DNA of 36,846 nt from Candidatus Woesearchaeota archaeon (GCA_964481435.1 CAYZTH010000002.1:1-36846), one strand, 5' to 3'. Positions 1,976 to 36,846 are shown, counted from the first letter of the stretch. Notes: generated from the sequence alone by a model not told the origin. Translations and numbers: made by a program.

Positions 1976-2081
1976 AATAGAAGTAATTAATTTAAAACTA
2001 AACAAAGATTTTGGTAAACTCTAAGTTCACAACGTTTTGCAAAACCCAATTAGCCAAAATAACATAAGTCAAATCAAAAAA

Positions 2082-2600
2082 ATGAGACAAATTATTAATA
2101 ACAAGAAAGGAATATCTGAACTGGTTTCATATGTTCTATTGATTGTGTTAGCTATTGCAATTGCTAGCGGCGTTTACATCTGGCTTACGAGCATTGCTAA
2201 ACCTTCTAATGCGGTTGAATGTCCTGATGTTAACTTGAGGCTTGAGAGTTATGAATGCATTCAAAGATTCGCAAATGATCCTGGAAAGTTAACCCTTGAT
2301 TTAAAGAATAATGGAAAATTTGATATCACTGGATTCAGGATAATGATAAGAGATGATCCTGATAGACTTTTTTCTAATATCAGCGTTGTGAATGATTGTT
2401 TTGGTGGAGAGAGCACCCTGGGCGCATATGGGTGCGAGATAAAGGTCTCTGAAACAAGAAGTGTTTCTGGAACTTTCTCTGCTATAAACACAGTTAGACT
2501 AGTCCAAATTATACCAATAAAAGAAGTTGATGGCAAGCTTGCTTACTGCAAACCTATTGAATTCTTGATTGATAACTGTGTTTCCCCTTCTTCTGGTTGA
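2082..2600 (+). CDS. archaeal type IV pilin-like protein (DUF1628-like N-terminus)
   Basis: An internal ATG at 2082 gives MRQIINNKKGISELVSYVLLIVLAIAIASGVYIWL, a class III signal peptide. Six Cys in the predicted exported part. Confidence 0.7.
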   Translation: MRQIINNKKGISELVSYVLLIVLAIAIASGVYIWLTSIAKPSNAVECPDVNLRLESYECIQRFANDPGKLTLDLKNNGKFDITGFRIMIRDDPDRLFSNISVVNDCFGGESTLGAYGCEIKVSETRSVSGTFSAINTVRLVQIIPIKEVDGKLAYCKPIEFLIDNCVSPSSG

Positions 2601-2608
2601 AATCAGAA

Positions 2609-3085
2609 TTATTGAGGATTAAGAGTTTTAGAGATATAGGTGAGAGCATATCCAACACCATAACCTACAAAAAATCTACCTGTAGAAACTGCTCCGTTTA
2701 TTAATAGGGCTTGAGGTATATTTCTTTTAGATCTTTCTAGGAAGTCTCTTATAAATTCTTTGGGAAACAAGGAGGCTCGAGCGTTAAATCTACATGCGCT
2801 CTGGTACACTGCATCTACTTCTTTGTCAGATATCTTAAAGTCCACACAATAGCCTTTTAAATAAGCGTCTAGGCCAGAAAAAAGAGTATTCAGCACAATC
2901 ACCCCCGTATCTGCTCTCAAACCCATTGGACGACCATTTGCAGCATTACTTCCTTCAATAGCTCCCACCACAAGTGTGGAAATATTCAAAAGGGGAACTA
3001 GGATACCCGTTGCGGATTTTATTTTTCTTGCTATTGGATGACTAACATTTTCTTCTAGACTTTCATTGTTTGTTGAATTACTCAT
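2609..3085 (-). CDS. hypothetical membrane-associated protein
   Basis: 158-aa ORF on the opposite strand inside the pilin cluster. It has a Gly-rich hydrophobic C-terminal segment (GRFFVGYGVGYALTYI). No recognisable domain. Confidence 0.45.
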   Translation of the reverse strand: MSNSTNNESLEENVSHPIARKIKSATGILVPLLNISTLVVGAIEGSNAANGRPMGLRADTGVIVLNTLFSGLDAYLKGYCVDFKISDKEVDAVYQSACRFNARASLFPKEFIRDFLERSKRNIPQALLINGAVSTGRFFVGYGVGYALTYISKTLNPQ

Positions 3086-3234
3086 ATTCTTTTCCTAGAA
3101 CCAAGAAGGTTCTTTCAATCCCTAAAAAATTGAGTTTTTTGGGATTTTGAGTCTTTTTATTAAACTTTTATACTGGTTTATACTTCAAGGCTTCTGGCTC
3201 ACAAGATTTTTAAATTCATAATACCTAGGTATTT

Positions 3235-3690
3235 ATGTTAAAATCTAAAAGAGGAATATCTCCGGTTATTGCAACAATACTTCTTGTGGTGATTGCGATT
3301 GCTTTATTTGGCGCAGTCTATGTCTGGATAACAAGTATGCAAAAAGATGCCATCATTAAGTTTGATACTGGAATTGAGCAAGCATGCTTAAAAGTTAATT
3401 TTAATGTTCTAAAACAAGGAGATGAGATACAAGTTCAGAATAGAGGTGAAGTTGCTTTGTATAGAGTTCAATTATATGTAAAGAAAGATGGCTCACTAGA
3501 TTCTCTTGGAACAATTCCGCTTGAGTCAAGCTCAGGAGTCATTGGCCAGGGAGAGAGTGCAAGCGGCGAGTTTGATTTGGCAGGATGCCAACAAATCAAG
3601 GCCGTTCCAGTCTTACTTGGCATATCAAAGAAAACAGGAACTGAGAAAGAGTATGTCTGCCAAGAGAAAACAAAGTTTATCGGATGCTAA
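3235..3690 (+). CDS. archaeal type IV pilin-like protein
   Basis: MLKSKRGISPVIATILLVVIAIALFGAVYVWI is a canonical class III signal peptide with a DUF1628-type N-terminus. TATA-like TTTTTAAA at 3207-3214. Four Cys, with the last residue Cys. Confidence 0.8.
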   Translation: MLKSKRGISPVIATILLVVIAIALFGAVYVWITSMQKDAIIKFDTGIEQACLKVNFNVLKQGDEIQVQNRGEVALYRVQLYVKKDGSLDSLGTIPLESSSGVIGQGESASGEFDLAGCQQIKAVPVLLGISKKTGTEKEYVCQEKTKFIGC

Positions 3691-3742
3691 AGACAAAGTA
3701 TAAAAAGCTAAATTTACTAAAAAATAGAGAAAAAGAGGAAAG

Positions 3743-4204
3743 ATGAATGTATTAAACAATAAACGAGGAATTGAACCTGTTATTGCAACTGTTCTTTTGA
3801 TTGTAGTTACTCTTGCTGTTGTTGGCTTAGTTATGGGATTTTTATATCCATATATTCAGAATATGATTGATAAGCAGACAGCCTGTAATGGTGTTGCTTT
3901 GAGAATAAGCAGTGAAGGAACTTGTACGGGGGGCCCAGATGGTACAAAGGTCATGGTTGAAGCTATATTGAATGATAATAATCTAAGCAAAATGACTACT
4001 TATTTCCTGTTTGGTGGGGAGACCAGGACAAATATATCAACAAGCTTGAATTTATTGCCTGAGAATGGCGGAGCAAGAACCTATAAATATGCGACTCAAG
4101 AAAAGGTAGAAAAGGTCTGGGCAATCCCAACAATAAAATTCAAAGGAAAAGATTTCAGCTGCGATAATGCAAAAGCAGAACTTACTCCTGTTTTAGCATG
4201 TTAG
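3743..4204 (+). CDS. archaeal type IV pilin-like protein
   Basis: MNVLNNKRGIEPVIATVLLIVVTLAVVGLV is a class III signal peptide. GAGGA lies upstream. Four Cys, with the last residue Cys. Confidence 0.8.
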   Translation: MNVLNNKRGIEPVIATVLLIVVTLAVVGLVMGFLYPYIQNMIDKQTACNGVALRISSEGTCTGGPDGTKVMVEAILNDNNLSKMTTYFLFGGETRTNISTSLNLLPENGGARTYKYATQEKVEKVWAIPTIKFKGKDFSCDNAKAELTPVLAC

Positions 4205-4281
4205 AGAGTATATCTAAACTGTATAAATTAAGGGTTTTAATAAAATTTTATCTTTTTAAAACCCAGACAAGATAATAACAT

Positions 4282-4818
4282 ATGAAAATGTTGAGGCAAA
4301 AAAGAGGTGTTGTCTGGGTTTCTACTATTCTGTATATCTTGATAAGTCTGGCGGTCTTATCTCTTGTCTTGGTATCTGTGCAACCAATTATAGACAAGAA
4401 CCGAGATAAAGCGCTATGTTCTCAGAGCGAACAGATGCTGAGAGATATTGATTCTAGGATAAGAGATGTCGGTTCTGTTGAAGGAAATAAGCTCTCTTTA
4501 GATGCAAAGATAAGTCGAGGAAACTTAATAATAAACTCAAGTTCAAATTCAATAACTTGGGAACTAACAGACTCGGCATATCAGTATAGTGAGGAAAACA
4601 CGCCAATAAATATTTCAGCTAATATAAAAGCCATTACAAGAAGAAGCAGAGAGAACAAATGGGATGTTAAGATATACTTGGATTATCAGGGAAAATATAA
4701 TGTAACCTATAACAATGGAGAAACCTCAAGAGTCTTATCTGAATCAGATTATGTTTTGTTCTTTGAGTATGCTGGCAATAGTGATTCTTTGAAACAGATT
4801 GATGTCCGTGTAAGTTAA
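4282..4818 (+). CDS. pilin-like protein (class III signal peptide)
   Basis: MKMLRQKRGVVWVSTILYILISLAVLSLVLV has a basic stretch, then Gly, then a hydrophobic helix. Last gene of the same-strand cluster. Confidence 0.6.
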   Translation: MKMLRQKRGVVWVSTILYILISLAVLSLVLVSVQPIIDKNRDKALCSQSEQMLRDIDSRIRDVGSVEGNKLSLDAKISRGNLIINSSSNSITWELTDSAYQYSEENTPINISANIKAITRRSRENKWDVKIYLDYQGKYNVTYNNGETSRVLSESDYVLFFEYAGNSDSLKQIDVRVS

Positions 4819-14750: not shown

Positions 14751-16547
14751 ATGAAGATTACAAGAAAAGAGCTGATAAGCCAGTACTTGAGTTTTTTCAA
14801 GCTCAAGAAGCATGCAGTAGTCCCTAACGCAAGCCTTATTCCTGAAAATGATCCAACTGTCCTTTTCACAACTGCAGGGATGCATCCCTTAGTTCCTTAT
14901 ATCTTGGGACAGCAACATCCCCTAGGAAAGAGACTTGTTGGTGTTCAGAGATGTATCAGAACAGGCGATATAGAAGAAGTGGGAGATGCATTTCATCATA
15001 CTTTCTTTGAAATGCTAGGAAATTGGGCACTAGGAGATTACTGGAAGTCCGAGGCTATCAAGATGAGTTATGATTTTTTGACAGAAGTTCTTCAGATTCC
15101 CACAGAGAAGTTATCTATTTCATGCTTCAAGGGAGACGATGATGCTCCACGAGATGATGAGAGTGCAAAGATATGGGAGAGCTTAGGAATTGATGAGAAG
15201 AAAATTATTTTTCTTGGAAAAGACAAGAACTGGTGGGGACCAGCTGGAAAGACAGGGCCTTGTGGACCAGATACAGAAATGCATGTCTATGTTGGCCTAG
15301 GTAAACCTAAACCTGGTTCGAATGCTGAAAAAAATGAAAAAGAGTGGTGCGAGATATGGAATGATGTTTTTGTTCAGTATAATAAAACTAAAGATGGAAA
15401 GTTTGAGCATATTGACAGAAAAGTAATAGATACTGGAATGGGTGTTGAGAGGGTCTTAACTGTTCTCAATGGCTTGAAAGATAATTATCTCACTGATATC
15501 TTTCAACCTGCAATAAAAGAGCTTGAAAAGTTGTGTGATAAGCACTATGGCTTTAATCAAGACCACACCAGGATGATGAGAATCATTGTTGATCATATCA
15601 GGGCAGCTGTTTTTATCTTAAATGAGAACACTGTTCCAAGCAATGTTGAACAGGGCTATGTTCTAAGGAGACTAATAAGAAGAGCAATAAGATTCGGCCT
15701 TAGACTTGGAATCGAAGGAAAGCTCTGTAAAAGACTTGCGAAGATATTTATTGATTTCTATAAAGAGGACTATAAAGAATTCAAGAACACTGAGAGCTTT
15801 ATCCTTGAGGAGATTGAAAAAGAAGAAATAAAATTTAAAGAAACACTGGATAAAGGAATCAAAGAATTTGAGAACATTATATCCGAGAGAAAAGCAAGAA
15901 AATTGAGTGGAGAGGACTCATTCTTACTCTATCAGAGCTTTGGATTTCCATTTGAAATCACAAAAGACCTATGTAGTGAGAGAGGAATCAAAATAGATGA
16001 AGATGAATTTAATGAAGAACTTGAGAAGCACCAAAAATTATCGAGACAATCTAGCCAGGGAAAATTCAAATCAGGCTTAGCTGATGATTCAGAAGAAACA
16101 ACAAAACTTCATACTGCAACTCACTTGCTAAATCAAGCACTTAGAGAAGTTCTGCAAGAAGATATTCAGCAACGAGGTTCAAACATAACCCCTGAAAGAC
16201 TAAGGTTTGATTTTAATTTTGAGAGAAAATTAACAGACAAAGAGCTCAAGGAAATTGAAGACATTGTCAATAAGAAGATTTCCGAAGGCATGGATGTCAA
16301 GAGAGAGGAAATGTCTGTTGATGATGCTCTGAAGAAAGGAGCCCAGGCTGTCTTCAAAGAAAGATACGGAGATAAAGTTTCAGTCTATACTATCTGTGAT
16401 AAAGATAAAAAATCAAAACACTTTTCATGCGAGATTTGCGCTGGACCTCATGTCAATAACTTGAAAGAACTAGGACATTTTAGAATTCTTAAAGAGGAAG
16501 CTGTTGCAGCCGGGGTCAGAAGGATTAAGGCTGTGCTTGAGAGCTAG
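14751..16547 (+). CDS. alaS: alanyl-tRNA synthetase, short bacterial-type form
   Basis: NDPTVLFTTAGMHPL, FFEMLGNWALGDYW, DTGMGVERV. Editing-core motifs HTATH (aa 454-458) and CAGPH (aa 563-567). It ends at ...GVRRIKAVLES, so only 598 aa. Confidence 0.9.
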   Translation: MKITRKELISQYLSFFKLKKHAVVPNASLIPENDPTVLFTTAGMHPLVPYILGQQHPLGKRLVGVQRCIRTGDIEEVGDAFHHTFFEMLGNWALGDYWKSEAIKMSYDFLTEVLQIPTEKLSISCFKGDDDAPRDDESAKIWESLGIDEKKIIFLGKDKNWWGPAGKTGPCGPDTEMHVYVGLGKPKPGSNAEKNEKEWCEIWNDVFVQYNKTKDGKFEHIDRKVIDTGMGVERVLTVLNGLKDNYLTDIFQPAIKELEKLCDKHYGFNQDHTRMMRIIVDHIRAAVFILNENTVPSNVEQGYVLRRLIRRAIRFGLRLGIEGKLCKRLAKIFIDFYKEDYKEFKNTESFILEEIEKEEIKFKETLDKGIKEFENIISERKARKLSGEDSFLLYQSFGFPFEITKDLCSERGIKIDEDEFNEELEKHQKLSRQSSQGKFKSGLADDSEETTKLHTATHLLNQALREVLQEDIQQRGSNITPERLRFDFNFERKLTDKELKEIEDIVNKKISEGMDVKREEMSVDDALKKGAQAVFKERYGDKVSVYTICDKDKKSKHFSCEICAGPHVNNLKELGHFRILKEEAVAAGVRRIKAVLES

Positions 16548-24548: not shown

Positions 24549-25451
24549 ATGAAAAAGAGTGTGAATGTGTCCCTAGTGATTGCCGTGATGTTTATTCTTG
24601 TTGGGCTTTTATTTGTAAATGGGTGCGGCAAACCCGCAGACACTTACACAGAAGATCAGAATCAAACTTATGGAGATGAAAATCCGAATCAACAACAACC
24701 AACAGAAACTCCAAAAGAATACAAGACCTCTGATAAGTTATCCACAATAACACTAACAAGAGACCTTATCGATTCTAGTGGCGAACTCTCTCAACATGTT
24801 TCTTTCAAACTCTCGGGATATATGAAAGAAATTGATCCTACTTCAAATGACCAGACGCGATATTCAGATCGCGCCTATACTCTCGACCAAGGTAGAATAG
24901 ATTGGAGCATACAAGAACTGGAGATTCTTGAAGGGAATAATTGCAGATCAACAACAACAATCGGGGGCGAAGGAAATGATAGCCTATCTGCATATAATGT
25001 ATACTATAACCGGGATGGCCCTCAAAAAGATGATAATGGAAATATCGTCCATCTAAAAGCATATAATATTAAGATATCTTATATTGAACATGGATTAAAT
25101 GAACAAGGAAAATCAGAACTTAAGATCCTTGGGTCACTTTTAATGCCAGTTATGAATACTTATGTCGAAACTAAAAAAACAACAAATGCGTTATGTGGGG
25201 GCACTGATTCTTTAATGGATAATGCGATTCTTCAAATTCCTATAAAATTCATCGGCTTTAACCCAGATCAAAAAACCTTTTCAAACTCATTTGAAGCTGT
25301 AGAGGGTTATGAAAATCAGATTCAAGGAACAATAACCTCGGGTTATAAAGAAGCTGTATTTGCATACATGACCCCGGTCTTGGTCACAGAAATTCCAATT
25401 CCAGGCAATGAAGCGTCATGGAAAGTTTCATGGAATCTAGAGATGCCATGA
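24549..25451 (+). CDS. secreted lipoprotein-like protein
   Basis: Signal peptide MKKSVNVSLVIAVMFILVGLLFVNGC with a lipobox-like VNG|C, followed by a Q/N/T/P-rich linker. Confidence 0.6.
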   Translation: MKKSVNVSLVIAVMFILVGLLFVNGCGKPADTYTEDQNQTYGDENPNQQQPTETPKEYKTSDKLSTITLTRDLIDSSGELSQHVSFKLSGYMKEIDPTSNDQTRYSDRAYTLDQGRIDWSIQELEILEGNNCRSTTTIGGEGNDSLSAYNVYYNRDGPQKDDNGNIVHLKAYNIKISYIEHGLNEQGKSELKILGSLLMPVMNTYVETKKTTNALCGGTDSLMDNAILQIPIKFIGFNPDQKTFSNSFEAVEGYENQIQGTITSGYKEAVFAYMTPVLVTEIPIPGNEASWKVSWNLEMP

Positions 25452-25468
25452 AAATTTAATTAATAAGA

Positions 25469-25476
25469 TTTATAAA
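25469..25476 (+). promoter_or_regulatory. BRE/TATA-like box of the Cys-rich protein gene
   Basis: TAAGA-TTTATAAA-CAAA, 33 nt upstream of ATG 25510. Confidence 0.45.
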
Positions 25477-25509
25477 CAAAAAGAAAATTATGTAGTATTC
25501 AACAAAAAG

Positions 25510-26601
25510 ATGGTGGATCCAATAACAACAGCGGCCACAGCAAAGACTGCTAAAAAGGTAAAAGACGTCACGCAGAAACCTGTAAAAAGCGCAGGAGATG
25601 TAGCGTTTAAGGTATTTCTCTTGATACTATTGGCAATAATTACTATTCTTCTTATAGTTATAATTGCATTTATTATATTCGGCTGGGTCTTTCCATCATC
25701 TAATAATACGTTTATTCCTTACCCTGGTGCAGGACCAGGAGAATCAGGTTCATACTCCTCTGGTTATAATTATACAAATTATATTAACGCCCACTATCCG
25801 GGACCAGGGAGTCTTGGGGGGGAGTGTTACTGGGCCTATATCTGCCCCGGTGTTCCACCGGCTCCAACTTGCGACGATTGCACAGACGAGAATCGTTCAT
25901 GCTATAATAATTCAGAGTGTTGCTCTGGATGCTGTGAACAGTTCAGCATAAATTATCCGATTGGGGATATCCCTGGCCAGACTGCTTTCGTTGGGGGAAT
26001 ATGCAAACCAATTGAAAGATGCCAGCAACAGTGCAAGAATTATGCTCAGACATGCACAAACACAAGCCAGTGTTGTGATGGATATTGCTGTAAGAGCATG
26101 GGCGGAACATACAAAGAGTGTAGACCTAATTTAGAATGTAATTCGTGCACAGAAAATACTCAACTCTGTTCGAGTTCAAGTGAATGCTGTTCAGGATGCT
26201 GTAATGATGGATTATGCAGCCTTGAAACTCAGTGCTGCCATGAAGAAACTCAAACATGCTCGGGCTCTTCTGATTGCTGTTATGGTCTTGATTGTATAGA
26301 CGGACTATGCCAACAACCCGAATGCAAGAACTATGCAACCCAGTGCGAAACTAATGATGACTGCTGTTCAGGATGTTGTAAGAACATGGGAGGAACATAC
26401 AAAGAGTGCAGGCTTGAAAATGAATGCTCGGCTAGCTGCAATCCAATTGGAGGTTCTTGCCTTATAGGGGCTGACTGCTGTTCAACAGTATGCCTCGGAA
26501 ATAATACCTGCGGCTGTATTCAAGGAGGATATTCTTGCCCCGTAGCAGGTTCATGTTGTTCTCCTTACGAATGCGTAACAGGTATGTGTGTAATACCTTA
26601 A
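25510..26601 (+). CDS. N-terminally anchored cysteine-rich surface protein (seven CX6CX5CC modules)
   Basis: Lys-rich N-terminus, TM helix (aa about 35-60), a G/S/Y-rich spacer, then 53 Cys between aa 106 and 360 with a repeated spacing pattern. Confidence 0.8.
   Translation: MVDPITTAATAKTAKKVKDVTQKPVKSAGDVAFKVFLLILLAIITILLIVIIAFIIFGWVFPSSNNTFIPYPGAGPGESGSYSSGYNYTNYINAHYPGPGSLGGECYWAYICPGVPPAPTCDDCTDENRSCYNNSECCSGCCEQFSINYPIGDIPGQTAFVGGICKPIERCQQQCKNYAQTCTNTSQCCDGYCCKSMGGTYKECRPNLECNSCTENTQLCSSSSECCSGCCNDGLCSLETQCCHEETQTCSGSSDCCYGLDCIDGLCQQPECKNYATQCETNDDCCSGCCKNMGGTYKECRLENECSASCNPIGGSCLIGADCCSTVCLGNNTCGCIQGGYSCPVAGSCCSPYECVTGMCVIP
26032..26139 (+). repeat. intragenic duplicated module (copy A) of the Cys-rich gene
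   Basis: Encodes CKNYAQTCTNTSQCCDGYCCKSMGGTYKECRPNLEC. It is a diverged direct repeat of 26323-26427 at both DNA and protein level. Confidence 0.6.
26323..26427 (+). repeat. intragenic duplicated module (copy B) of the Cys-rich gene
   Basis: Encodes CKNYATQCETNDDCCSGCCKNMGGTYKECRLENEC. Confidence 0.6.
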
Positions 26602-26658
26602 AAGCTAAAAGAGTTTTGATTGTGTAATTACTATAAAAAGATAGAAATTTAAGAAAAG

Positions 26659-26666
26659 TTTATAAA
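26659..26666 (+). promoter_or_regulatory. BRE/TATA-like box of the giant surface protein gene
   Basis: AAAAG-TTTATAAA-CGAT, 35 nt upstream of ATG 26702. AGAGAAG lies before the ATG. Confidence 0.45.
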
Positions 26667-26701
26667 CGATATCTCCATAAAGAAGATATAAAAAAGAGAA
26701 G

Positions 26702-29700
26702 ATGGCGAATACCTGGCAATTTTTTTTAACAGTTGTATCTGTAGCCTTATTATTATTCATGCTGATTCCACTTGTTTCGGCAAATGTATATATCCCGGAT
26801 ATTTATTTTACTCTTCCTGACAGTGTCTTTTATGCAAATGAGAACATTCAATTAAAAGGCTATGTTTATTTTACCAATATAAGCGATAACGGAACATACT
26901 ACTCCAATAATACGGTATTAGTTGGTCAAGAAATTAACCTCAGTATTTGGGATGAAAGCAGAACACTAAATGCTTCTTATAACTTGACTACAGATTCTAA
27001 TGGTTCATTTTATTCAAGATCTAATTTTTATTTATCTTCCCCTTTAGTTAGCGCCCCCCTTGTTCCTGGAAATTATTATATAAGGGCGAGCGTTGTTCTT
27101 AATAATACAAATAATAGCAATTCAACGTACTATTCTGAAATTGAATTTAGTGTTGCAAATCAAACTATGGATTTTATAAGAGTAAGCTCTGACAAGGCAA
27201 GATATAATCCCGGAAATGGAGTCATAGTTAGTGCAGAAGCTGTAAAAAAAGTAGGAGACAGAATATTGTATATCTCAAATGTTTCTATATCTGGAAATCT
27301 AAGAGATTCTGCAAAAGAGGTCTTGGAGGCTTTTTCATGCACAACTGGGAGCAATGGAAAGTGCACAACAACAGTTACAGCGCCAGACTATGGAGAATAT
27401 ATCTTAGAGGTTAATAATTTCAAGGCATTTAGTTCATTCCAAGTTGTACCATTTTCTTTTATACTATCTGTTAAAGATGAAAATGGAAAATCTATAAAAA
27501 ATGTTTTTTCGCGAGGGGAAAAGGCAAAAATTGAAGTTAAAGCGAATAATGCAAGTTCTTCAGATACATATCGTTTCATTGGATATATAAAAGACTCTTC
27601 TGGAAGAATAATTGAAAATATCTCAACGGTGGTGCTAAATTCAAATAACTCTTTTGCAAACAGCTATGAGGTTAGTATTGACTCTGATTATAATTATGGA
27701 AGCTACTCGGTCTACGTTGATGTTACAAAAGATGGAGATGGGACTATCAGTTCTCTAACTTCTTTTAAAATTGAAGATTGGAGTCTTTCTTTGAGCAAAA
27801 AATCATCGCGTTCTGGGTTCGAATATGGGTACAGCGCATTTCCAAATTCTACTTTATACTTTGAACTTCTTCCGTTGTATAGAATAAATGGATCAATAGT
27901 GCCCAACATAAGCTTCTCTTCATTCACCGCATTGCTCAAAGATGAATTAAATAATGTTATAAATAGTTCTAATGTTTCTTGGAATTCGAGTTGTGGAACT
28001 TCTGGATGTTACGAATTCTCTTTAAGAGCTCCTGAGAACTATGGAAAATACTCTCTTTATGCTACCCTAGTTTATAGTAATAATGTTCAGACAATTAGCA
28101 GAGCAATCAATATAATAAATACTGTAATCTCTGCTCAATCAACTGATAAAAACGGCAATATAAAAGAATTATTTGGGACAAATGAGTTTGTTTATCTGTC
28201 TTTTTTAACATATAATCTAACTAATCCTAGTGTAAATCTAAGTGATGCTGAATTATTTATTGTCCAATATATGAATGGAACTGAAATTTCATATTCAAAT
28301 GCCAGTTCTTTTGAAGAAGTCAATGGAACAGGTTATAGATGGTCTTGGAATTCTAGCCTGCAAAGAATAAAGATGGACACTCTAAAAATGGGAGGGTTAT
28401 ATAATATCTATATCTTTGGAAATAACAGGTCAGCAGGAGCCGAAGCTAAATTTATTATAAATCCATATGACGCATGTATCTCTCCAAAAAATTCTTTAGA
28501 AACTAACAGTTATTATGTGTGGCAATTCAAGACATCAGATACTATTTATTTTGAAATTAAGATAAGCCAAGCAAACAACCCATTGGGCAAAGCAACTGCA
28601 CTAAATCTATCCTCAACCTCAAATTCAAGCACCAATGGAACACAAGGCGGACTTGGGGCTGCATGCGCAATGGATACTACAACAAAACAAGTTGTTACAA
28701 ATGCGACACTAACAATTGATGAAGTAAAAAATTCAGAATCTGGAGTCATACAGTCTTTTAATTCATCTGGGTCGAGCTGCACTCCAAAGGATAATCTGGG
28801 AACCTATATTTGCACTCTTAAACCCTTGTCAAAATGGGATTCTGGACAAATACTTGTTAAGGTTGATATTGAAGGACAAGATGGTTCAACCAGCACGGTT
28901 TATGGTATGTTTGAAGCACGAGCATTTTATTTATACGGATGGAGCCAATCATGGCAGAACAGCCCGACCTCTAATATAACTTTACAAATACAAATATATG
29001 AAGCAGGAAGCAATTGGTGGGGCAGCGGGAGCGGCATAAGCGGCACAGTAACTGTAACTAAAGTTGAATATCAAGGAGGCTCTGGAGAGTGGATATGGCC
29101 CCCAATTGATTCAGGGTATAATGTTTCTTTATTAAATTCAACTTCAGTAAGTGGAAGTACCGGAACTATGACATTAGATTCTTCGTATGCTTCTGGCGGA
29201 AGATGGAAAACTGGAAATTATAGAGCAGTCCTTAAAGCGACAACTTCCTCGGGAGACACAGACTATGGTTATGCTTGGTTTGGAATCAGAATGTGGGATG
29301 TTTATGGCTCTCCGATAGAGTGCACTGATTCTTCATGCAATTATAAGAGTTATTTTAATACAAGAGAAAATATAACTTTATTTATTCAAGTTAATAAACC
29401 GGGAATGTGGGGAAGTTACAATCAAGATTTGAGTGATAATGTCAGCGTAAGCGTTAAGAAAATCCAAGATTGCAGAACCTGGCCTTGTAAAGAACTAAAT
29501 CAGACAGATTATAGCGCAAATAGCATAAATGTCAGCAGAACAAGCGGGTACTATTGGAGTGGCAATTTAACTTCTCTTTCAAATTATATAATATATATAA
29601 ACTCAACTTCAGGAATTTGGGATGCGGGTTCATACAATGTTATCCTTGATGTTAAAGGAATCAATGAAAGTGATAGTGGTTCAGCTTGGTTTAATTCAAT

Positions 29701-31645
29701 TGCATTTTATGTTGAAACGCAGCCAGTTAATTCTAATGGGACTTCTTATAAGTACAATATAAAACCCGGAGAAACAGCTTATATCAATGTAACAACAACT
29801 AAAAATTATAAATATTCAAGTTCTGGAACAAGGTATAATTTCTCAGATTATGTAAATACGAGTATTGTTAATATAACTCTGTCAAGATGGGATCAAAATT
29901 CTCAAAGTAGTGTCAAATATAACTTACAGTCTCTAAATGTCGCTCCTTTACAAGTAAATGGAACCCAGATATTAAATATTACTTACACTAACGGGAATTG
30001 GCCTTCTGGATACTATTGGGGAGAACTTTTAATGAACAACTCTGATGGAGAGAATTCAAGAGGATGGCTATACTTTAATGTACAACCATTTAGAGTTGAT
30101 ACTTCTATAAGTTCATATAATGTGGACTATGATAGTTGTGCTAATGCTAGCTTGAATGCGAGAGAGCCTGATTGGAATTACTATTCTTTACTTTATGGAA
30201 ATTATTCTGTTACCGGGGTATATGAAGATATATGGTCTATGTCGGGAGTTCAAAGAACAACCTATACTAATTATACCCTCAATGGAGGGGATAATACAAC
30301 TGAATTCAATGCCACAACGTATATAAATATCTGTCCAAACGAGGGAGGCTGGGGAAGCGGAAGTTGGGGAGGATATCACTACTTGAGTCTTATTGTTTCA
30401 AATGCTTCTGACCTGGCATCCAATCAAACAGGGTGGTTGTATTTTAGGACAATTCCCTTCATAACAAGCTGGAACAGTGGTAGTAATATAAGAAAAACTT
30501 CCTCGAAAACAGCAACTGTAACCCTAACAAGAGTTTTAGGAGGAAATGCATCTGGAAATTTAACTAAACTCTATCAATGGAGATATGATGCCTACAAAAA
30601 TGGAGAAGAAGAGTATATATACAAAACGAATGATAGTTGTTGGTCAAATGTTTCGAGCGCCTGCACAATAAATGGTGCTGCAAATATTACAATTTTTCCT
30701 CCATCATATGGATGGAAGTCTGGATACAATTATATTTATTCTGTATGGACGAATGTAAACGGTAGCACAAGGTTCGAGGATTATAATGGAATTTATTTCC
30801 AAGCAAGAGATATTTATTATGGGACATTCTCTAATTACGATCAAAATAACAGTTATAAATATAATTTTGCTCAAGATGAAAATCTAACTATAAAAGTGGT
30901 TGTAAGAGATCCTGATGATAACCTAGCAAATGTCAATATCACAAAGGTCGAATATAGCACTAATTATTATACTTATAGTGATGCTACATATACTACAACT
31001 AATTTAAGCTATGGAACACACCTCATAACTATGACAAATTCAGGAAATTGGTCTTTGGGATATTATTATATCAGAATAACTGTAACTGGTTCAGAAGGAA
31101 GTGTATTATTTTCTGATACTGGAAATCTTCGAGTTAAAGATATGGTCGCTCCAACACTAAATATAACATATCCCATAAACAATGTGACCTATTCAAATAA
31201 TTCTTTGATATTTAACATTACTCTCTCTGAAAATGGTATTTGTGAGTCAACGCTTTATAACTACTATAATTTCTATAATTCGTTTTGTTATAATTGGAAT
31301 GCAACCAATTCATCAAATCAAACAAAAGAAGCATGTAATACTACAAAGTATAATTACAGCGGAAACACCTATTATTATGAATGGCTTTCTTACCACTATC
31401 ACTCTCTTTACTCTGATAATGGGAGTGCATATTGTTATAGATCTAGTTCTTGTTCTGGCTCAAATGACGCTTTAATAGCAAGAGCAAGAGTCTTTACTTC
31501 CGGAACATCATCAACAAGCCAAAGCTTTACTCTTAACACCACTAATTGGACAGAACAAAATTATGGAGTATATATTAATTGCTATGATAATGATTGGAAT
31601 TATGGCCATGAATTAGTTACTGTCGCTGTAAACAACCCTGTTTAA
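26702..31645 (+). CDS. giant secreted surface glycoprotein (S-layer/adhesin-like), no membrane anchor
   Basis: 1647-aa uninterrupted ORF. Signal peptide MANTWQFFLTVVSVALLLFMLIPLVSA. N/S/T/Y-rich, with about 80 N-x-S/T sequons by hand count. No C-terminal TM helix. Confidence 0.85.
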   Translation: MANTWQFFLTVVSVALLLFMLIPLVSANVYIPDIYFTLPDSVFYANENIQLKGYVYFTNISDNGTYYSNNTVLVGQEINLSIWDESRTLNASYNLTTDSNGSFYSRSNFYLSSPLVSAPLVPGNYYIRASVVLNNTNNSNSTYYSEIEFSVANQTMDFIRVSSDKARYNPGNGVIVSAEAVKKVGDRILYISNVSISGNLRDSAKEVLEAFSCTTGSNGKCTTTVTAPDYGEYILEVNNFKAFSSFQVVPFSFILSVKDENGKSIKNVFSRGEKAKIEVKANNASSSDTYRFIGYIKDSSGRIIENISTVVLNSNNSFANSYEVSIDSDYNYGSYSVYVDVTKDGDGTISSLTSFKIEDWSLSLSKKSSRSGFEYGYSAFPNSTLYFELLPLYRINGSIVPNISFSSFTALLKDELNNVINSSNVSWNSSCGTSGCYEFSLRAPENYGKYSLYATLVYSNNVQTISRAINIINTVISAQSTDKNGNIKELFGTNEFVYLSFLTYNLTNPSVNLSDAELFIVQYMNGTEISYSNASSFEEVNGTGYRWSWNSSLQRIKMDTLKMGGLYNIYIFGNNRSAGAEAKFIINPYDACISPKNSLETNSYYVWQFKTSDTIYFEIKISQANNPLGKATALNLSSTSNSSTNGTQGGLGAACAMDTTTKQVVTNATLTIDEVKNSESGVIQSFNSSGSSCTPKDNLGTYICTLKPLSKWDSGQILVKVDIEGQDGSTSTVYGMFEARAFYLYGWSQSWQNSPTSNITLQIQIYEAGSNWWGSGSGISGTVTVTKVEYQGGSGEWIWPPIDSGYNVSLLNSTSVSGSTGTMTLDSSYASGGRWKTGNYRAVLKATTSSGDTDYGYAWFGIRMWDVYGSPIECTDSSCNYKSYFNTRENITLFIQVNKPGMWGSYNQDLSDNVSVSVKKIQDCRTWPCKELNQTDYSANSINVSRTSGYYWSGNLTSLSNYIIYINSTSGIWDAGSYNVILDVKGINESDSGSAWFNSIAFYVETQPVNSNGTSYKYNIKPGETAYINVTTTKNYKYSSSGTRYNFSDYVNTSIVNITLSRWDQNSQSSVKYNLQSLNVAPLQVNGTQILNITYTNGNWPSGYYWGELLMNNSDGENSRGWLYFNVQPFRVDTSISSYNVDYDSCANASLNAREPDWNYYSLLYGNYSVTGVYEDIWSMSGVQRTTYTNYTLNGGDNTTEFNATTYINICPNEGGWGSGSWGGYHYLSLIVSNASDLASNQTGWLYFRTIPFITSWNSGSNIRKTSSKTATVTLTRVLGGNASGNLTKLYQWRYDAYKNGEEEYIYKTNDSCWSNVSSACTINGAANITIFPPSYGWKSGYNYIYSVWTNVNGSTRFEDYNGIYFQARDIYYGTFSNYDQNNSYKYNFAQDENLTIKVVVRDPDDNLANVNITKVEYSTNYYTYSDATYTTTNLSYGTHLITMTNSGNWSLGYYYIRITVTGSEGSVLFSDTGNLRVKDMVAPTLNITYPINNVTYSNNSLIFNITLSENGICESTLYNYYNFYNSFCYNWNATNSSNQTKEACNTTKYNYSGNTYYYEWLSYHYHSLYSDNGSAYCYRSSSCSGSNDALIARARVFTSGTSSTSQSFTLNTTNWTEQNYGVYINCYDNDWNYGHELVTVAVNNPV

Positions 31646-31648
31646 AAA

Positions 31649-32713
31649 ATGAGAAAAACAAAGGAAAAATTAATAGCGGGTAGAAATTCAATCTTGTTCT
31701 TTATTATTTTATTTTTATTCTTAATTAATCTTTGTTTGGTTTATGCTTCAGCTGATTTCCAAGTAACTAGTTTTTCGTGTTCTCCAGAAGAAATTGTTGT
31801 GAGCAGCAGTTTTTCTTGTACAGCCCAGATTAAAAACTCAGGGGATAACGGAAGTTTGGGCGTTGTTACACTTTATCCTGATTCTAGTGCCTGGCTTGAA
31901 GAGTCTAACTATCCCCAAGCATATGGGTCTAGTATTCAGGGTGGGGAGACTATATCTATTGCATTCTCTGAATTAAGAGCAACTAAATCAGGAACAAATG
32001 GTTTTTCAAAGATTATGCTTGATTCGGTTACAGACAATTATGTCTCAGATAATGGGATCAGTGTGAATACTATTAATGTTATTGCTGTTTTGGAGGTTTC
32101 TGATTCTTCTGTTTCTATTGGAGATATCTTTGATGTCATTGTAGAAATTACTGCAGGCGGGAGTATCGATGTTGTTCTTAAATTTGAAGGAAATGCTGGC
32201 TGTGATTTAGGAAGCCAATCCAGTCAAAAAACAATAACTGGAATGACTGATGGAAGTAAACAGTCGAGAACATGGACCGCGGTTACGCAAGCAGATGATG
32301 TTGCTTGTTCATTTACAATTACTGCTACTGCAACAGGAACAGGAGGTATTGCTTCAAAACAAGATAGTTCTTCAGAAACACTAACCTGTTCAGACTGCCC
32401 TGTTGAAGAAGATGAAGGAGGCGGAGGAGGAGGGAGCGGTGGAGGAGTAGCCTCAGCAAATGAAACTGATGCAACTAATCAGACAAACCAGAATCCAGAA
32501 TTGAATAATAACACAAATATTCTGAATAATCAAAGCACTACCAATAAAACTGGTGAGAATAAAGAGGGAAAAGGGAATAACTTAACCTGGTTGTGGTGGG
32601 CTATCTGCGTTGCTGTTGTGGCTGTATTCACTGTTTTGGCTGTTGTTCTTACAAGAAAAGAGAAAGATCCTTATCATAAGAATTACAAGTACAAAAGACC
32701 TAACAAGTACTAA
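31649..32713 (+). CDS. C-terminally anchored beta-sandwich (CARDB-like) surface protein
   Basis: Signal/anchor ILFFIILFLFLINLCLVYASA. VTSFSCSPEEIVVSSSFSCTAQIKNSGD is a CARDB-like strand pattern. Then a Gly6-SGGG linker, an N/T/Q-rich stalk, the TM helix WLWWAICVAVVAVFTVLAVVL and a short basic tail. It starts 3 nt after the giant gene's stop. Confidence 0.75.
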   Translation: MRKTKEKLIAGRNSILFFIILFLFLINLCLVYASADFQVTSFSCSPEEIVVSSSFSCTAQIKNSGDNGSLGVVTLYPDSSAWLEESNYPQAYGSSIQGGETISIAFSELRATKSGTNGFSKIMLDSVTDNYVSDNGISVNTINVIAVLEVSDSSVSIGDIFDVIVEITAGGSIDVVLKFEGNAGCDLGSQSSQKTITGMTDGSKQSRTWTAVTQADDVACSFTITATATGTGGIASKQDSSSETLTCSDCPVEEDEGGGGGGSGGGVASANETDATNQTNQNPELNNNTNILNNQSTTNKTGENKEGKGNNLTWLWWAICVAVVAVFTVLAVVLTRKEKDPYHKNYKYKRPNKY

Positions 32714-32716
32714 TTT

Positions 32717-33496
32717 TTATACTCTAAACAGTTCTGTTGCTTTATCTCTTTCAGAAACATGGAATTCTGCTTCGAGATCTTTTCTTTCTTTAAGCAAAGA
32801 TTTCATTGTCTTTAGGGCAACAGGGGGTGTGTTATTTACTGCACTCAGATGTGATAGAACAATTTTCTTTAATTTTGTTCGCGCATGTTCCAATAAACAA
32901 ATGGAAGACTGAAAATTTGAGAGATGGCCTAGCTTGCTTGAAATCCTATCTTTTAAGAATTTGGGGTAGGGCCCATCTTGAAGCATGCCATAATCGTGGT
33001 TTGCTTCTATGAATAAAAAGTCTGATTCAGATGCATACTCTGACACATTCTTACATACTTGGCCTATGTCGGTCATTACTGAGACTGTCTTTACCTCGTT
33101 TCTGGAGAGTATTGAGTAAGAAACCGGATTCAAACCATCGTGAAATTTTGGAAAAGTTTGGACATCAAAGCCATTTATCTTTACTGTTTCATTATTTTTT
33201 ATAAAATTTAACATTTCTTGGTTTGAACAAATAAAGGTCTCTTTAGATGTTTCTTTTGTCAGAAAAATTGGGACATTAAAATTCCTTGCAAAGACATCAA
33301 CACCTTTAATGTGATCTGAATGCTCGTGAGTCAAGAAAATAGCTTTAACATTCTCTGGACTTCGCTTTATATGTTTTAATCTCTCGCAGGCAAGCTTACA
33401 GGTTATTCCGAGGTCTATCAGAATTCCTTGCTTGTCGTCATTCTCTATATAGAATGAATTGCCTGAACTTCCCGAAGCTAAAGCACATGCCCTCAT
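32717..33496 (-). CDS. MBL-fold metallo-hydrolase
   Basis: MRACALASGSSGNSFYIE..., HxHxDH motif LTHEHSDHIKG. The start is set at the ATG forming an ATGA overlap with the upstream stop; the track's longer start is 33526. Confidence 0.85.
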   Translation of the reverse strand: MRACALASGSSGNSFYIENDDKQGILIDLGITCKLACERLKHIKRSPENVKAIFLTHEHSDHIKGVDVFARNFNVPIFLTKETSKETFICSNQEMLNFIKNNETVKINGFDVQTFPKFHDGLNPVSYSILSRNEVKTVSVMTDIGQVCKNVSEYASESDFLFIEANHDYGMLQDGPYPKFLKDRISSKLGHLSNFQSSICLLEHARTKLKKIVLSHLSAVNNTPPVALKTMKSLLKERKDLEAEFHVSERDKATELFRV

Positions 33497-33969
33497 GCTA
33501 ATCTCCCCGGGGTCTTTTTTACCCATCCGACATTCTTCTTTAACCAGTGATTATAGGTCTCTTTATCAAACCTTTTTATTGATTTCAAAGCGACTTTCTT
33601 TGAATCTTTGATAAATTTTTTATCTAAATACTTTGAAGCAGGACACCCCGTATCTAAGAGATAAATTATCTTGTCTTTTGAATAGATTGCTTTGACAGGA
33701 TAGCATAGACAATCCAAAGGTTTATTCTCTTCAATTTTGCACTTGCCCTCTTTTAAAAAGATACAATCCTGGCTCCTTTTTCCTTCCTTTAAGATAAAAT
33801 AATTCTTTCCTGATTTCAATTTGATTTCTTTTACATAGGCCCCAATCTTCTTTGCTTCTTTGTAATCTAGTATTGGGGACCCAAAGAATTTTCCTGCTTT
33901 ACAGCACTTTGATTTGCAAAAAATACAGTATTTTAATAAAGATAAATCCCCCATTTTTATCACCAACAT
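33493..33969 (-). CDS. YkgJ-family (CxxCxxCC) cysteine-cluster protein
   Basis: CIFCKSKCC near the N-terminus, plus a second Cys group (DCIFLKEGKCKI...LDCLCYP). Confidence 0.65.
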   Translation of the reverse strand: MLVIKMGDLSLLKYCIFCKSKCCKAGKFFGSPILDYKEAKKIGAYVKEIKLKSGKNYFILKEGKRSQDCIFLKEGKCKIEENKPLDCLCYPVKAIYSKDKIIYLLDTGCPASKYLDKKFIKDSKKVALKSIKRFDKETYNHWLKKNVGWVKKTPGRLA

Positions 33970-34009
33970 CTCTTAGAAAAATGAGTTTTTAATGCTTTCT
34001 AGAAAAAAT

Positions 34010-36846
34010 TCATCTGTTCTTTATCAACTTTTTAACTTTATCCTGTTCTTTGTGATGCAGAATATCTAGGATTCCATCTTCATCCTTGTGCAACCGGTCT
34101 AGATTACCTTTCAATTTACGGGCAATATTAGTTTCTTCTTCAAATATAGCTTGAACGGAGTTTATCTTGTTCTTTATTTCCATCCTGATTGCTGAATGTC
34201 CTAAGTTCTTGTAATTTTCAGACTTCATCAAAATCTTTTCTTTTTCAACTAGCTTTTTGTATTTTCCAAACCAGTCCGCCATCTCATCCAAGGCCCTCAT
34301 TCTATCTGAGTCGAGACTCTTTATTTTACCTGCTTGAGAATAAGGTATCTTCTTTTTGTCTATCATCTTCCCAATCATCCCAGGACTTATCTTTACCCTA
34401 TCTCTTAATCTTGTTCTTCTATTCAGGCATAATTTTATTCCCCAGCCAGAATTCTTTCTTATTTTATTATTAAACTTCTGAATATTATAAAATGCATCAC
34501 TAGGGTCTTGTCTATTTTTAGTCTTTATATCGCCCAATATGTCCTCTTGTTTCTTCTTAAGGGAGACAAAATTGGTTATTCTCTGGACTACTTTTTCAAG
34601 AGTCAATCTCTTGAGTGGATTATATACGAAAGGGAGTATAATCAGGATTATTGCAATCAAGATAATCAGGTATAATAAACTCCGCCAATTGAATCTTCCC
34701 ATGCAACCGTTATCTGTGCAATCATAACTGATAACCAAAATACCCAGAATCTTTGAATTTGGACTACATCTACAGTCTTTACAGCAGGTTTTGCTTGTTT
34801 CGTCTACGTCACACCGATTATCGCCACATGAAGATCCCCCAACCTGTGCCCCGGCATTTTCTTTGGTTTGATTTGTTTCATTTGATGGAGTCACTGGATT
34901 TGTTTGATTAGTCACATTGGTATTATTCTTTAGAGTTACATCTCCTCCGCCGTCCCAAAGGATTGTTGGAGCGACATAATTTATGTTGAATGTCCTATTT
35001 TCAGTTATGTTTGTCTGGCTAGCAGTATCATTACACCAAACCGCCCACTTATAGTTCTGTGCATCAGAAATTCCAGGAACAGTTATGTTCAGCCAGGTAT
35101 CATTTGTGTATGAATCATTGGTATAGTTCGCTCCCCATGTTCCGGTCGTGTTTGTCCAGAGCTGAATCATGGAAACAGCAACATTGTCATAACATTTCAT
35201 ATCAAATGTGACTGAAGAACTTGTTGAATTGTAACTATCTGCAGGATTGGCCCCCTGGGCTGCGACTGGATTTGTTGAATCTCCCCCTCCTGCTGAGGCA
35301 GTCACTAGCGGAACAAGTATGCTGAAGCTCGTCGCATTTCCAGAGATAGTTTTATTCTCTATATCAACTAAGCTGTAACTGACATTCTTCCAGTCTGTTG
35401 AATTATAGTCTAGCATAACCATCAAGCTTTCATTTTTTCCTACGGGAATATCCTCTGCAGAATAGGAGATATTAAGGAAAAGCCAGTTGCTTCCTGTCAA
35501 GTTTGTTACATTGACATATTTTGAAATATTCGAATAATCTACAGGGTCGCTTGGAGGAATTTCAACGCCATCTATTTCAAAGTTACCTGAGTAAGTATAA
35601 CTTATCTTAGTCGGGAAGTACTCGCCGATTGTCTCGTTCATGAAGATATTATCGTGGCTGTAATCGCCTAGCACAATGTCCTTTGCATTTTGGGCATTTA
35701 GTACGTTATTGTTAAAAGTGTTGTTGCTCGAAGGATCACTACTTGAGCCAGCAAAATAAACAGCCCAACTATCTAATCCACTAGTATTTATGTTATTACT
35801 AGAAACATTGAAGAAAGTAGTTCTGTAAAAATAAATTCCATAACCTCCCCACCCACTGGAGTCACCTAATCCTTCCATTGTTATATTATTATTATTGACA
35901 TGGGAAATCGCCCCACTTGGATTATCGGTCTGTCTGTTATATTCTAAATAAATACCTGTGCTATAATCTCCAGTAACCAGGATGTTATTATTAATAACAC
36001 TTAAATTACCTGCAGAATAATCAATATAAACGCCGTAGTACCAACCCTCGGAAGCAGCAGTAATATTATTATTATGAATACTGCTGTTTGAACTTAATGC
36101 TTGAAGATGTATGCCTGTCTGAACCGCCGTGACATTATTATTATATGCGCTGCATCTGTCAACCATATATAAATCAATTCCGGTTTGAGCCGAGTACACA
36201 TTATTATCAAAAACAGAGTCATTATATAGGGGAGGGTAGCCGTCTATATCTCTTGTCCATAACTCTATGCCTATGCTATTTGCTGATGTTCCATCAACAG
36301 TAATATTATTTCCAAAAATATCATTATTATTTGAACCCCGTTGCATAAGAACCCCATAACTATTGGCTGCACTTCCAGTAGCATGAATCGTGCTATAAGA
36401 GATAAAATTATTACTGCAGTTATAATCCACGATTACTCCGTAACCATCTTTAGTAGTTATATTATTATAAGAAACATTAGTGTTATTCGTGCCATACCCT
36501 AGACTGATTCCCCAGTTAACTCCAATAGAAGTGATATTGTTATTAAAAACTGTTCCATTGCTTGCATTTTTAAAATAGATTCCTCCGGTACTTGTGTGTG
36601 GAACACTTGTGTTTATATTGCAGTTTTTCACGGTTGTGTTTGTTGAATTAGAATAAACCCCATGACCTGTAGCGGAAGAGGCATAATTAATTGTAAAACT
36701 GTTGCAGTCAATAATTACATCTGCCCCAGTTACATTAAAGCAAGTTCCTGCTGAATTAATGCTAGTATTCAAAGTGTAAATTCCGGGGGAGGTTATATTT
36801 GCACACCAGCCGATATCTTCTGCAGATGCTAATTGGGTTAAAGAAA
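34010..36846 (-). CDS. single-pass surface protein with a parallel beta-helix (PbH1/NosD-like) ectodomain and a 203-aa cytoplasmic tail; 5'-partial
   Basis: At least 10 coils of the type (F/Y/H/I)NNN(I/V)T..., a Big-like domain, an N/T-rich stalk, a CGDNRCDVDETSKTCCKDC motif and the TM helix LLYLIILIAIILIILPFVY. The track's start (36772) is a TTG and the frame stays open to the window end. Confidence 0.85.
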   Translation of the reverse strand, partial: SLTQLASAEDIGWCANITSPGIYTLNTSINSAGTCFNVTGADVIIDCNSFTINYASSATGHGVYSNSTNTTVKNCNINTSVPHTSTGGIYFKNASNGTVFNNNITSIGVNWGISLGYGTNNTNVSYNNITTKDGYGVIVDYNCSNNFISYSTIHATGSAANSYGVLMQRGSNNNDIFGNNITVDGTSANSIGIELWTRDIDGYPPLYNDSVFDNNVYSAQTGIDLYMVDRCSAYNNNVTAVQTGIHLQALSSNSSIHNNNITAASEGWYYGVYIDYSAGNLSVINNNILVTGDYSTGIYLEYNRQTDNPSGAISHVNNNNITMEGLGDSSGWGGYGIYFYRTTFFNVSSNNINTSGLDSWAVYFAGSSSDPSSNNTFNNNVLNAQNAKDIVLGDYSHDNIFMNETIGEYFPTKISYTYSGNFEIDGVEIPPSDPVDYSNISKYVNVTNLTGSNWLFLNISYSAEDIPVGKNESLMVMLDYNSTDWKNVSYSLVDIENKTISGNATSFSILVPLVTASAGGGDSTNPVAAQGANPADSYNSTSSSVTFDMKCYDNVAVSMIQLWTNTTGTWGANYTNDSYTNDTWLNITVPGISDAQNYKWAVWCNDTASQTNITENRTFNINYVAPTILWDGGGDVTLKNNTNVTNQTNPVTPSNETNQTKENAGAQVGGSSCGDNRCDVDETSKTCCKDCRCSPNSKILGILVISYDCTDNGCMGRFNWRSLLYLIILIAIILIILPFVYNPLKRLTLEKVVQRITNFVSLKKKQEDILGDIKTKNRQDPSDAFYNIQKFNNKIRKNSGWGIKLCLNRRTRLRDRVKISPGMIGKMIDKKKIPYSQAGKIKSLDSDRMRALDEMADWFGKYKKLVEKEKILMKSENYKNLGHSAIRMEIKNKINSVQAIFEEETNIARKLKGNLDRLHKDEDGILDILHHKEQDKVKKLIKNR

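Follow-up and report, generated by a model that had tools for sequence, protein, structure and literature searches.

A conserved two-gene unit encoding a giant predicted surface glycoprotein and a membrane-anchored neighbour in DPANN archaea

Results

A giant secreted protein and its anchored neighbour

The window analysed here, a stretch of 36,846 nucleotides from Candidatus Woesearchaeota archaeon (GCA_964481435.1, CAYZTH010000002.1:1-36846), belongs to a Pacearchaeota-like DPANN genome, and between positions 24549 and 36846 it carries seven open reading frames (ORFs), here called A to G, five of which (A, B, C, D and G) encode exported or membrane proteins and together fill about 88% of the 12.3 kb. 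An earlier note on this DNA had described the region as dominated by genes for exported proteins, and on this it was borne out; all seven ORFs were recovered where it had placed them, and ORF calls, hydropathy, cysteine positions and sequon counts confirmed the features that it gave for A, B, C and D. The GC content of the region is the same as that of the rest of the window, and the genes that flank it are housekeeping genes, encoding seryl-tRNA synthetase, an Elp3-like radical SAM protein, glutamate dehydrogenase, alanyl-tRNA synthetase (AlaRS) and leucyl-tRNA synthetase. The region is thus chromosomal rather than a compositionally foreign island, and is an island by gene content only, with no foreign origin implied. 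The source contig (ena:ERZ27248937:k141_112837) is 47 kb long, and the identical arrangement was found in two more assemblies of the same population. Searches of Pfam and NCBIfam with the seven proteins gave significant matches for E (metallo-beta-lactamase (MBL) fold) and G (Beta_helix) only.

Gene C (26702-31645, plus strand) encodes a giant protein of 1647 aa with a signal peptide ending in LIPLVSA, followed by NVY, which hydropathy analysis identified as its sole hydrophobic segment. The lack of an anchor is a trait of the whole family: among 95 full-length homologues, an N-terminal hydrophobic segment is present in 84 and a C-terminal transmembrane (TM)-like segment in one. Sequons (N-x-S/T) were counted and compared with shuffled sequences, and C contains 81, against 39.6±5.3 in the shuffles (z = 7.8), with 30 of the 81 kept in at least 80% of 37 homologues. 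Such an excess is limited to C and G, in which the expectation from composition is roughly half of the observed count, and is absent from the other proteins of the window. About 104 homologues were found, nearly all full length and with 33-54% identity, in metagenome-assembled genomes (MAGs) labelled Nanoarchaeota, Pacearchaeota, Woesearchaeota, Aenigmarchaeota and Micrarchaeota; wherever a source was named the annotation was hypothetical, and none of the homologues found came from a named cultured organism. The family is collinear over about 1640 aa with only short insertions and deletions, and it is evenly conserved over its whole length, Trp, Tyr, Gly and paired Cys being invariant at many positions. 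Longer members (1.8-2.3 kaa) are extended at the C-terminus, and in five homologues (P0057, P0069, P0081, P0091 and P0098) a collinear core is followed by appended modules (pyrroloquinoline quinone (PQQ) beta-propeller, Big/PKD), which suggests that the C-terminus of C is an exposed, adaptable end.

AlphaFold2 models of C, built with 44-sequence alignments, are all beta, with a mean pLDDT (predicted local distance difference test score) of 80.4 for residues 25-1195 and of 87.5 for residues 1196-1647, and the number of strands in the models predicts about 14 tandem beta-sandwich domains of the MG/Ig-like type. Assignment of secondary structure by DSSP in both models gave short helices only and no helical thioester domain, and the sequence has no CxEQ motif. 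C has no match in Pfam or NCBIfam, and a family profile of 37 homologues matched no chain in the PDB at E ≤ 1, solved surface-layer (S-layer) proteins included; nor did C or D match the Pfam families S_layer_N (PF05123) and S_layer_C (PF05124) at E ≤ 0.1. A HMMER search with residues 25-1195 against 1.84 billion representative proteins returned 103 clusters, each of which belongs to this family or holds a fragment of a member, and gave no link to other families, and since its matches are confined in this way the C family is closed and uncharacterised. In Foldseek searches of the PDB the bacterial alpha-2-macroglobulins ranked first (ECAM of E. coli, 5a42, E = 4e-23; Salmonella, 4u48), followed by CD109, A2ML1, TEP1 and C5, with TM-scores of 0.1-0.2 only, and unrelated Ig arrays (gp210, mastigoneme, DSCAM and titin) ranked close behind; with the C-terminal 452 aa, the PDB and the viral BFVD library gave only generic FN3/Ig arrays. 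Faint precomputed matches to MG2 are present in many C homologues. The earlier note had proposed structure prediction and Foldseek as a check on its claims; run here for C, this check returned an all-beta protein whose fold resembles MG/Ig arrays, and no characterised family.

Gene D (31649-32713, plus strand) begins 3 bp past the C stop codon. In its product of 354 aa a signal peptide is followed by a conserved head (about 220 aa), a linker that is first Gly-rich and then N/T-rich, a TM helix at residues 311-338 and a basic cytoplasmic tail. The head comprises two predicted beta-domains and holds the cysteine pairs Cys44-Cys57 and Cys185-Cys220. An alignment of the D family gives the same order of head, poly-Ser/poly-Gly linker, optional extra domain, TM helix and basic tail, with a C-terminal TM segment in 50 of 52 complete homologues and no heptad-like segment seen between head and TM helix. 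Many homologues have PGF-pre-PGF (TIGR04213, E = 1e-16 to 1e-23) as the optional domain, and others have a different small domain there. At E ≤ 0.01 the head gave weak matches to CARDB (PF07705) in 21 of the 44 family members (best 4.7e-5), and the D of the window gave none.

Conservation and coupling of the C-D pair

The conservation of this gene pair was examined by scanning one genome per GTDB species with the C family alignment, which gave 63 giant-gene loci with up to 10 kb of flanking DNA on each side, and by searching these loci by tblastn with all proteins of the window. D was found immediately downstream of the giant gene at 59 of the loci. When the comparison was restricted to informative loci (n = 51), defined as non-redundant, complete at the 3' end of the giant gene and followed by 1 kb or more of further sequence, D lay directly downstream in 49, from Pacearchaeota, Woesearchaeota, Aenigmatarchaeota and Micrarchaeota. 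Measured from the C stop codon, most D genes start at -4 to +16 bp, a spacing that implies co-transcription and probably translational coupling. Unsupervised clustering of 999 ORFs from the flanks was in agreement, as the only widely shared clusters were C, at 61 loci, and D, at 54. Each of the loci examined apparently has a single copy of the pair, which stands among housekeeping genes. A candidate promoter of the unit, read by eye, may lie on the plus strand at 26651-26666, some 40 nt ahead of the C start codon (ATG), where a purine-rich stretch resembling a transcription factor B recognition element (BRE) precedes the BRE/TATA-like sequence TTTATAAA.

C and D therefore form a strongly conserved, previously undescribed two-gene unit. 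This upholds the part of the earlier note that had singled out the giant protein and its anchored neighbour, and our literature searches turned up no description of the pair. Seven C-D loci (L044, L052, L062, L063, L065, L066 and L068) come from MAGs titled 'uncultured Methanosarcinales archaeon' or 'Candidatus Saccharibacteria bacterium', which probably reflects wrong labels on bins and not a true occurrence outside the DPANN archaea. In a comparison with a housekeeping gene, the AlaRS of the window was 22-24% identical to the AlaRS of about 830 aa that adjoins C-D in eight Woesearchaeota loci, where C gave 36-42%. The AlaRS of the window (14751-16547) has 598 aa only and may be split or non-orthologous, and this comparison is accordingly treated as unreliable.

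The next cluster in the flanks is an N-anchored, cysteine-containing protein of about 246 aa (about 220-275 aa), which is present at 12 species-representative loci and absent from the window. It adjoins the cassette either downstream of D or upstream of C, as at L006 16212-16952, L014 8576-9313, L082 16811-17557, L083 6544-7254 and eight more loci. Where this third gene sits in other loci, the window holds E and F. The loci of the two sequences nearest to C, at 53-54% identity, have C, D and the third gene but none of A, B, E, F and G.

The remaining genes of the region

The earlier note had put forward A, B, C, D and G together as a candidate for one undescribed system, such as a multi-component surface layer, and had named a lack of synteny or co-occurrence in related genomes as grounds for its refutation; for the five-gene set, that lack is what the comparison found. 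In the 63 giant-gene loci and the two closest relatives, A, B and F were never found within 10 kb of the giant gene, E was found at one locus (L013), and G gave a single match to part of a domain. Across the 70 and more related loci that were compared, the only recurring sub-units are C-D and A-B. The proposal of an undescribed surface complex in the region consequently stands in reduced form, with two parts (C and D) in place of five.

A and B form the second of these sub-units. A (24549-25451, plus strand) encodes a protein of 300 aa, predicted to be exported, whose N-terminal hydrophobic segment ends in VNGC. The Gly-Cys of this motif (G25-C26) is invariant in all four family members, which supports processing as a lipoprotein-like protein and a predicted lipidation; the Asn at position -2 of the lipobox is atypical. 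A has no match in Pfam and no significant sequence match in the PDB. B (25510-26601, plus strand) encodes a protein of 363 aa with a Lys-rich N-terminus, a TM segment at about residues 33-58 that would anchor it in type II orientation, and 53 cysteines. These are arranged in seven tandem repeats of the form C-x6-C-x5-CC-x2-4-C(C)-xn-C, the framework of the inhibitor cystine knot (ICK). No significant Pfam match was obtained for the B of the window, and its best sequence match in the PDB, to a spider ICK toxin, was not significant (E = 0.2). Only nine homologues of B were found in a collection of 5.8 billion proteins, with borderline matches to Conotoxin_I2, Toxin_12 and Dickkopf_N. 'Knottin-like' is thus a fair term for the cysteine framework of B, with the knottin fold as such a prediction.

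At each of the three B loci examined, the gene next to B on its upstream side is a homologue of A (38-46% identity), a methionine aminopeptidase gene precedes A, and none of C, D or G is nearby, from which it follows that A-B is an independent, rare conserved pair. Its products would be a lipoprotein and a membrane-tethered array of disulfide-knot modules. B is like the ICK (knottin) toxins and the secreted cysteine-rich repeat proteins (SCREPs; PMC6262176) in its C-x6-C-x5-CC-x3-C-xn-C framework and in tandem repetition, and unlike them in being archaeal, tethered by an N-terminal TM segment, present in seven copies and paired with a lipoprotein gene. As such, the A-B pair would be unusual as an archaeal membrane-tethered tandem array of knottin-like modules.

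E (32717-33526, minus strand, 269 aa) and F (33493-33969, minus strand, 158 aa) overlap. They had been described as a YkgJ-like/MBL-hydrolase operon, which holds for E, an MBL-fold hydrolase with a match to Pfam Lactamase_B (58.9 bits) above the cut-off; F, a small Cys-rich cytoplasmic protein, has a CxxCxxCC-type motif only and no significant Pfam match. With the single E match and no F near homologues of the giant gene, E and F are an unrelated insert, outside any conserved unit with the surface genes.

G starts on the minus strand beyond the window and ends at 34010; it is 950 aa long in the source contig and runs past position 36846. It encodes a right-handed parallel beta-helix surface protein with Ig-like domains, a TM segment (residues 693-723 of the ORF within the window), a Cys-rich juxtamembrane segment and a conserved cytoplasmic tail, rich in K/E and about 200 aa long, and it contains 46 sequons against 20.4±3.8 in the shuffles (z = 6.8). 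Its match to Pfam Beta_helix (PF13229; 35.9 bits against a cut-off of 25.9), beside a sub-threshold match to NosD, runs counter to the earlier statement that none of the five proteins could be assigned to a characterised family. The closest homologue of G, P0116, is 57% identical, and all others are mosaic Beta_helix/NosD proteins. P0116 has an intact signal peptide, MKKSVSKRYTLFIIATFVILFCLINSSDVSA, followed by ADIGWC, and its alignment with G begins only at ASAEDIGWC, residue 12 of G. The 5' end of G is abutted by the C-terminal fragment (ending in HLWSRGKFAASVGFVQKDVITEYVRNQKEHH) of a Y1 transposase of the IS200-like type (Pfam Y1_Tnp; E = 1.4e-4 for the 40 aa of the fragment), noted at 20163-20285 of L001, just beyond window position 36846, and at 36772-36846 of the window; all three assemblies break at this junction. 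The position of the transposase fragment and the start of the alignment with P0116 together imply that the hydrophobic core of the signal peptide is gone from G, which was probably inactivated by the IS200-like insertion and is probably non-functional in this genome.

The P0116 locus has none of the other genes of the window, and the neighbours of P0116 are unrelated. G belongs to a generic family of beta-helix proteins of the cell surface and is adhesin- or glycosidase-like. Heavily glycosylated beta-helix surface proteins of the pectin-lyase-like type have already been described in Nanobdella aerobiophila (10.1101/2023.10.27.564410); they have 900-1300 aa, Ig-like folds and 36-52 sequons, which G with its 46 sequons resembles, and G differs from them in its TM segment and conserved tail of about 200 aa and, here, in the missing signal peptide.

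Two loci away from the region were also noted. Five consecutive small ORFs in the window (1499-1975, 2037-2600, 3235-3690, 3743-4204 and 4282-4818) have class III / type IV pilin-like N-termini, in which K/R-R/K-G is followed by I/V-x-P-V-I-A-T and a hydrophobic helix, and make 1499-4818 an archaeal pilin-like gene cluster, an additional cell-surface locus. In the source contig, about 5-9 kb upstream of the window start (L077 1106-5872), a nucleotidyltransferase/HEPN pair and a phage-type integrase are present, possibly an integrated element or a toxin-antitoxin locus. Scans of the window for tRNA genes and Rfam families gave no matches.

Discussion

The region appears to have arisen by chance juxtaposition of independent surface genes, with C-D at its core as a two-subunit envelope complex additional to the S-layer, and it is this account that we favour, as probable though well short of certain. 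C and D would both be exported through their Sec signal peptides. D would then be held in the membrane by its C-terminal helix, with the two-domain head of about 220 aa extended on a flexible linker that is rich in Gly, Ser, Asn and Thr and probably glycosylated, and the anchorless C, predicted to be heavily N-glycosylated and with its 14 or so domains, would be retained on the cell by binding to the D head. Together, C and D may form a conserved outer component of the envelope, either a canopy or a spike, with a role in the envelope or in cell contact. That such a component would be additional to the S-layer is suggested by the L006 locus, where a secreted protein of 879 aa (51-2690) with a match to S_layer_C (37.8 bits against a cut-off of 23.9) is encoded 10 kb upstream of C-D. 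This protein may be the canonical S-layer protein of that Pace/Woesearchaeota MAG, and the S-layer proteins of DPANN archaea studied or predicted so far are of the MSTP-like/S_layer_N-C type (10.1101/2021.04.28.441871; 10.1101/2024.05.28.596244). The presence of an S_layer_C protein beside C-D, along with this literature, makes C-D more likely an additional complex than the primary S-layer.

Several observations weigh against this account. C and D are known from genes and predictions, from which we infer their mutual binding. Coexistence of C-D with a canonical S-layer protein was seen in one genome only (L006), and no S_layer_N/C protein of the window's own genome was found within the 47-kb source contig. 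Two informative loci, L004 and L070, are without D, the latter with just 1.4 kb of downstream DNA. The D of the window is a short form in which the linker runs straight to the TM helix, without the PGF-pre-PGF domain. An identity of 35-55% in C across phyla is, moreover, unusually high for a surface protein, and may hide a more specific conserved activity than that of a canopy.

The evidence just given bears directly on a rather unlikely alternative, namely that C-D is itself the S-layer and an analogue of SlaA/SlaB, with C as the glycosylated two-dimensional lattice and D as its stalk. Gene order, size ratio, the division into an anchorless and an anchored protein and the sequon load all match SlaA/SlaB, the pair is apparently single-copy amid housekeeping genes, D homologues carry the PGF-pre-PGF domain of archaeal surface glycoproteins, and in another DPANN archaeon, Nanobdella, an arrangement like that of SlaA/SlaB has been suggested (10.1101/2023.10.27.564410). 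Against these stand the separate S_layer_C protein in L006 and the MSTP-like/S_layer_N-C type of the DPANN S-layer proteins known so far, as well as the absence of any sequence match between C and solved S-layer proteins, none of which is among its top 50 fold matches, the flexible S/G linker of D in place of a coiled coil of the SlaB type, and the usually much faster divergence of S-layer proteins. As the case against it depends on one genome and the literature, the S-layer alternative retains its standing as an unlikely explanation. It is also possible, if tentatively so, that C-D is an unrecognised structure of the DPANN envelope, either a second SlaA/SlaB-like layer or a conserved host-contact spike, built from a protein family with no detectable relatives outside the four lineages; the slow divergence of C would then reflect a conserved binding partner.

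The proposed complex depends on C and D working together and would be held by binding between them. They might be co-transcribed and have no interaction, C being for example a released adhesin or matrix protein and D an unrelated receptor, and the variable C-terminal extensions of C homologues (PQQ propeller, PKD/Big) would suit the exposed tip of an adhesin. Spacing of the translational-coupling type and the complementary division into anchorless and anchored proteins are, however, kept across four phyla, which is hard to explain without a shared function, and we regard independence as decidedly unlikely. The best Foldseek matches of C (A2M of E. coli and Salmonella, CD109, A2ML1 and TEP1, E = 1e-23 to 1e-18), the similar length of about 1650 aa and the faint MG2 matches in its homologues would fit an alpha-2-macroglobulin (A2M)-like protease trap or defence protein comparable with bacterial ECAM, with D as a tether that replaces the lipid anchor. 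This is very improbable, since TM-scores of 0.1-0.2 are similar to those of gp210, mastigoneme, DSCAM and titin, and C has no A2M or thioester domain (TED) match in Pfam and no sequence match in the PDB. Genuine archaeal A2M homologues retain both TED and CxEQ (PMC8416519). C as an alpha-2-macroglobulin proper was ruled out by the lack of the TED and of CxEQ and by the low TM-scores. A single surface layer or host-attachment apparatus made of A, B, C, D and G is equally remote: the genes are adjacent here and in three independent assemblies of the same population and all five products are exported or membrane proteins, but A and B occur at none of about 70 giant-gene loci, G gave one partial match, the A-B loci are without C, D and G, the locus of the nearest homologue of G is without all the others, and G has lost its signal peptide here. 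The five-gene reading is refuted at the level of synteny, and the 12-kb 'island', not being a system, should not be annotated as one.

Pacearchaeota and Woesearchaeota are the most widespread groups of DPANN archaea, and their cell surfaces are, to our knowledge, essentially unknown. C-D takes up about 6 kb of a very small genome. Being single-copy in the loci examined, conserved and tightly coupled, the pair is a concrete candidate for part of the envelope or host-contact machinery of these archaea, and an extracellular protein of about 1640 aa, conserved across four DPANN lineages together with an anchored partner, offers a testable handle on DPANN envelopes.

Among known systems, SlaA/SlaB of the Sulfolobales is similar to C-D in having adjacent, co-oriented genes for a large, anchorless beta-sandwich subunit, heavily N-glycosylated in SlaA and predicted to be so in C, and a smaller, TM-anchored subunit, the stalk in SlaA/SlaB. 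D is also like SlaB in its signal peptide, its C-terminal TM helix and its predicted beta-sandwich domains. In contrast, SlaA has no sequence similarity to C and is not among its top 50 Foldseek matches, and the coiled-coil trimerising stalk of SlaB corresponds in D to a poly-Ser/Gly linker, with PGF-pre-PGF in many homologues. SlaA and SlaB form a lattice, whereas C-D is known here from sequence and stands beside a canonical S-layer protein in at least one genome. By analogy, C-D would follow the logic of SlaA/SlaB without homology to it. The MSTP-like/S_layer_N-S_layer_C proteins (NEQ300, Micrarchaeum SLP_Mh) resemble C in being secreted, anchorless and from the same lineages, and in their glycosylation, which is predicted for C, but C is nearly twice as long and has no S_layer_N/C signal. 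With the alpha-2-macroglobulin/TEP proteins (ECAM, Salmonella A2M, CD109, TEP1 and the archaeal members; PMC8416519), C has tandem MG beta-sandwiches and length in common, and lacks their thioester domain, CxEQ motif and helical segment, so that the likeness is one of fold class only. The description that suits C-D best is that of a putative surface glycoprotein complex of archaea with two components, built from a family that no curated library contains. Similar to C-D in layout is the VARTIG module of the Thermococcales (PMC8416519), in which a large upstream secreted Ig/CARDB protein is followed by small membrane proteins. Unlike the hypervariable VARTIG, with its shuffled downstream genes, C-D is conserved and collinear and keeps a constant partner.

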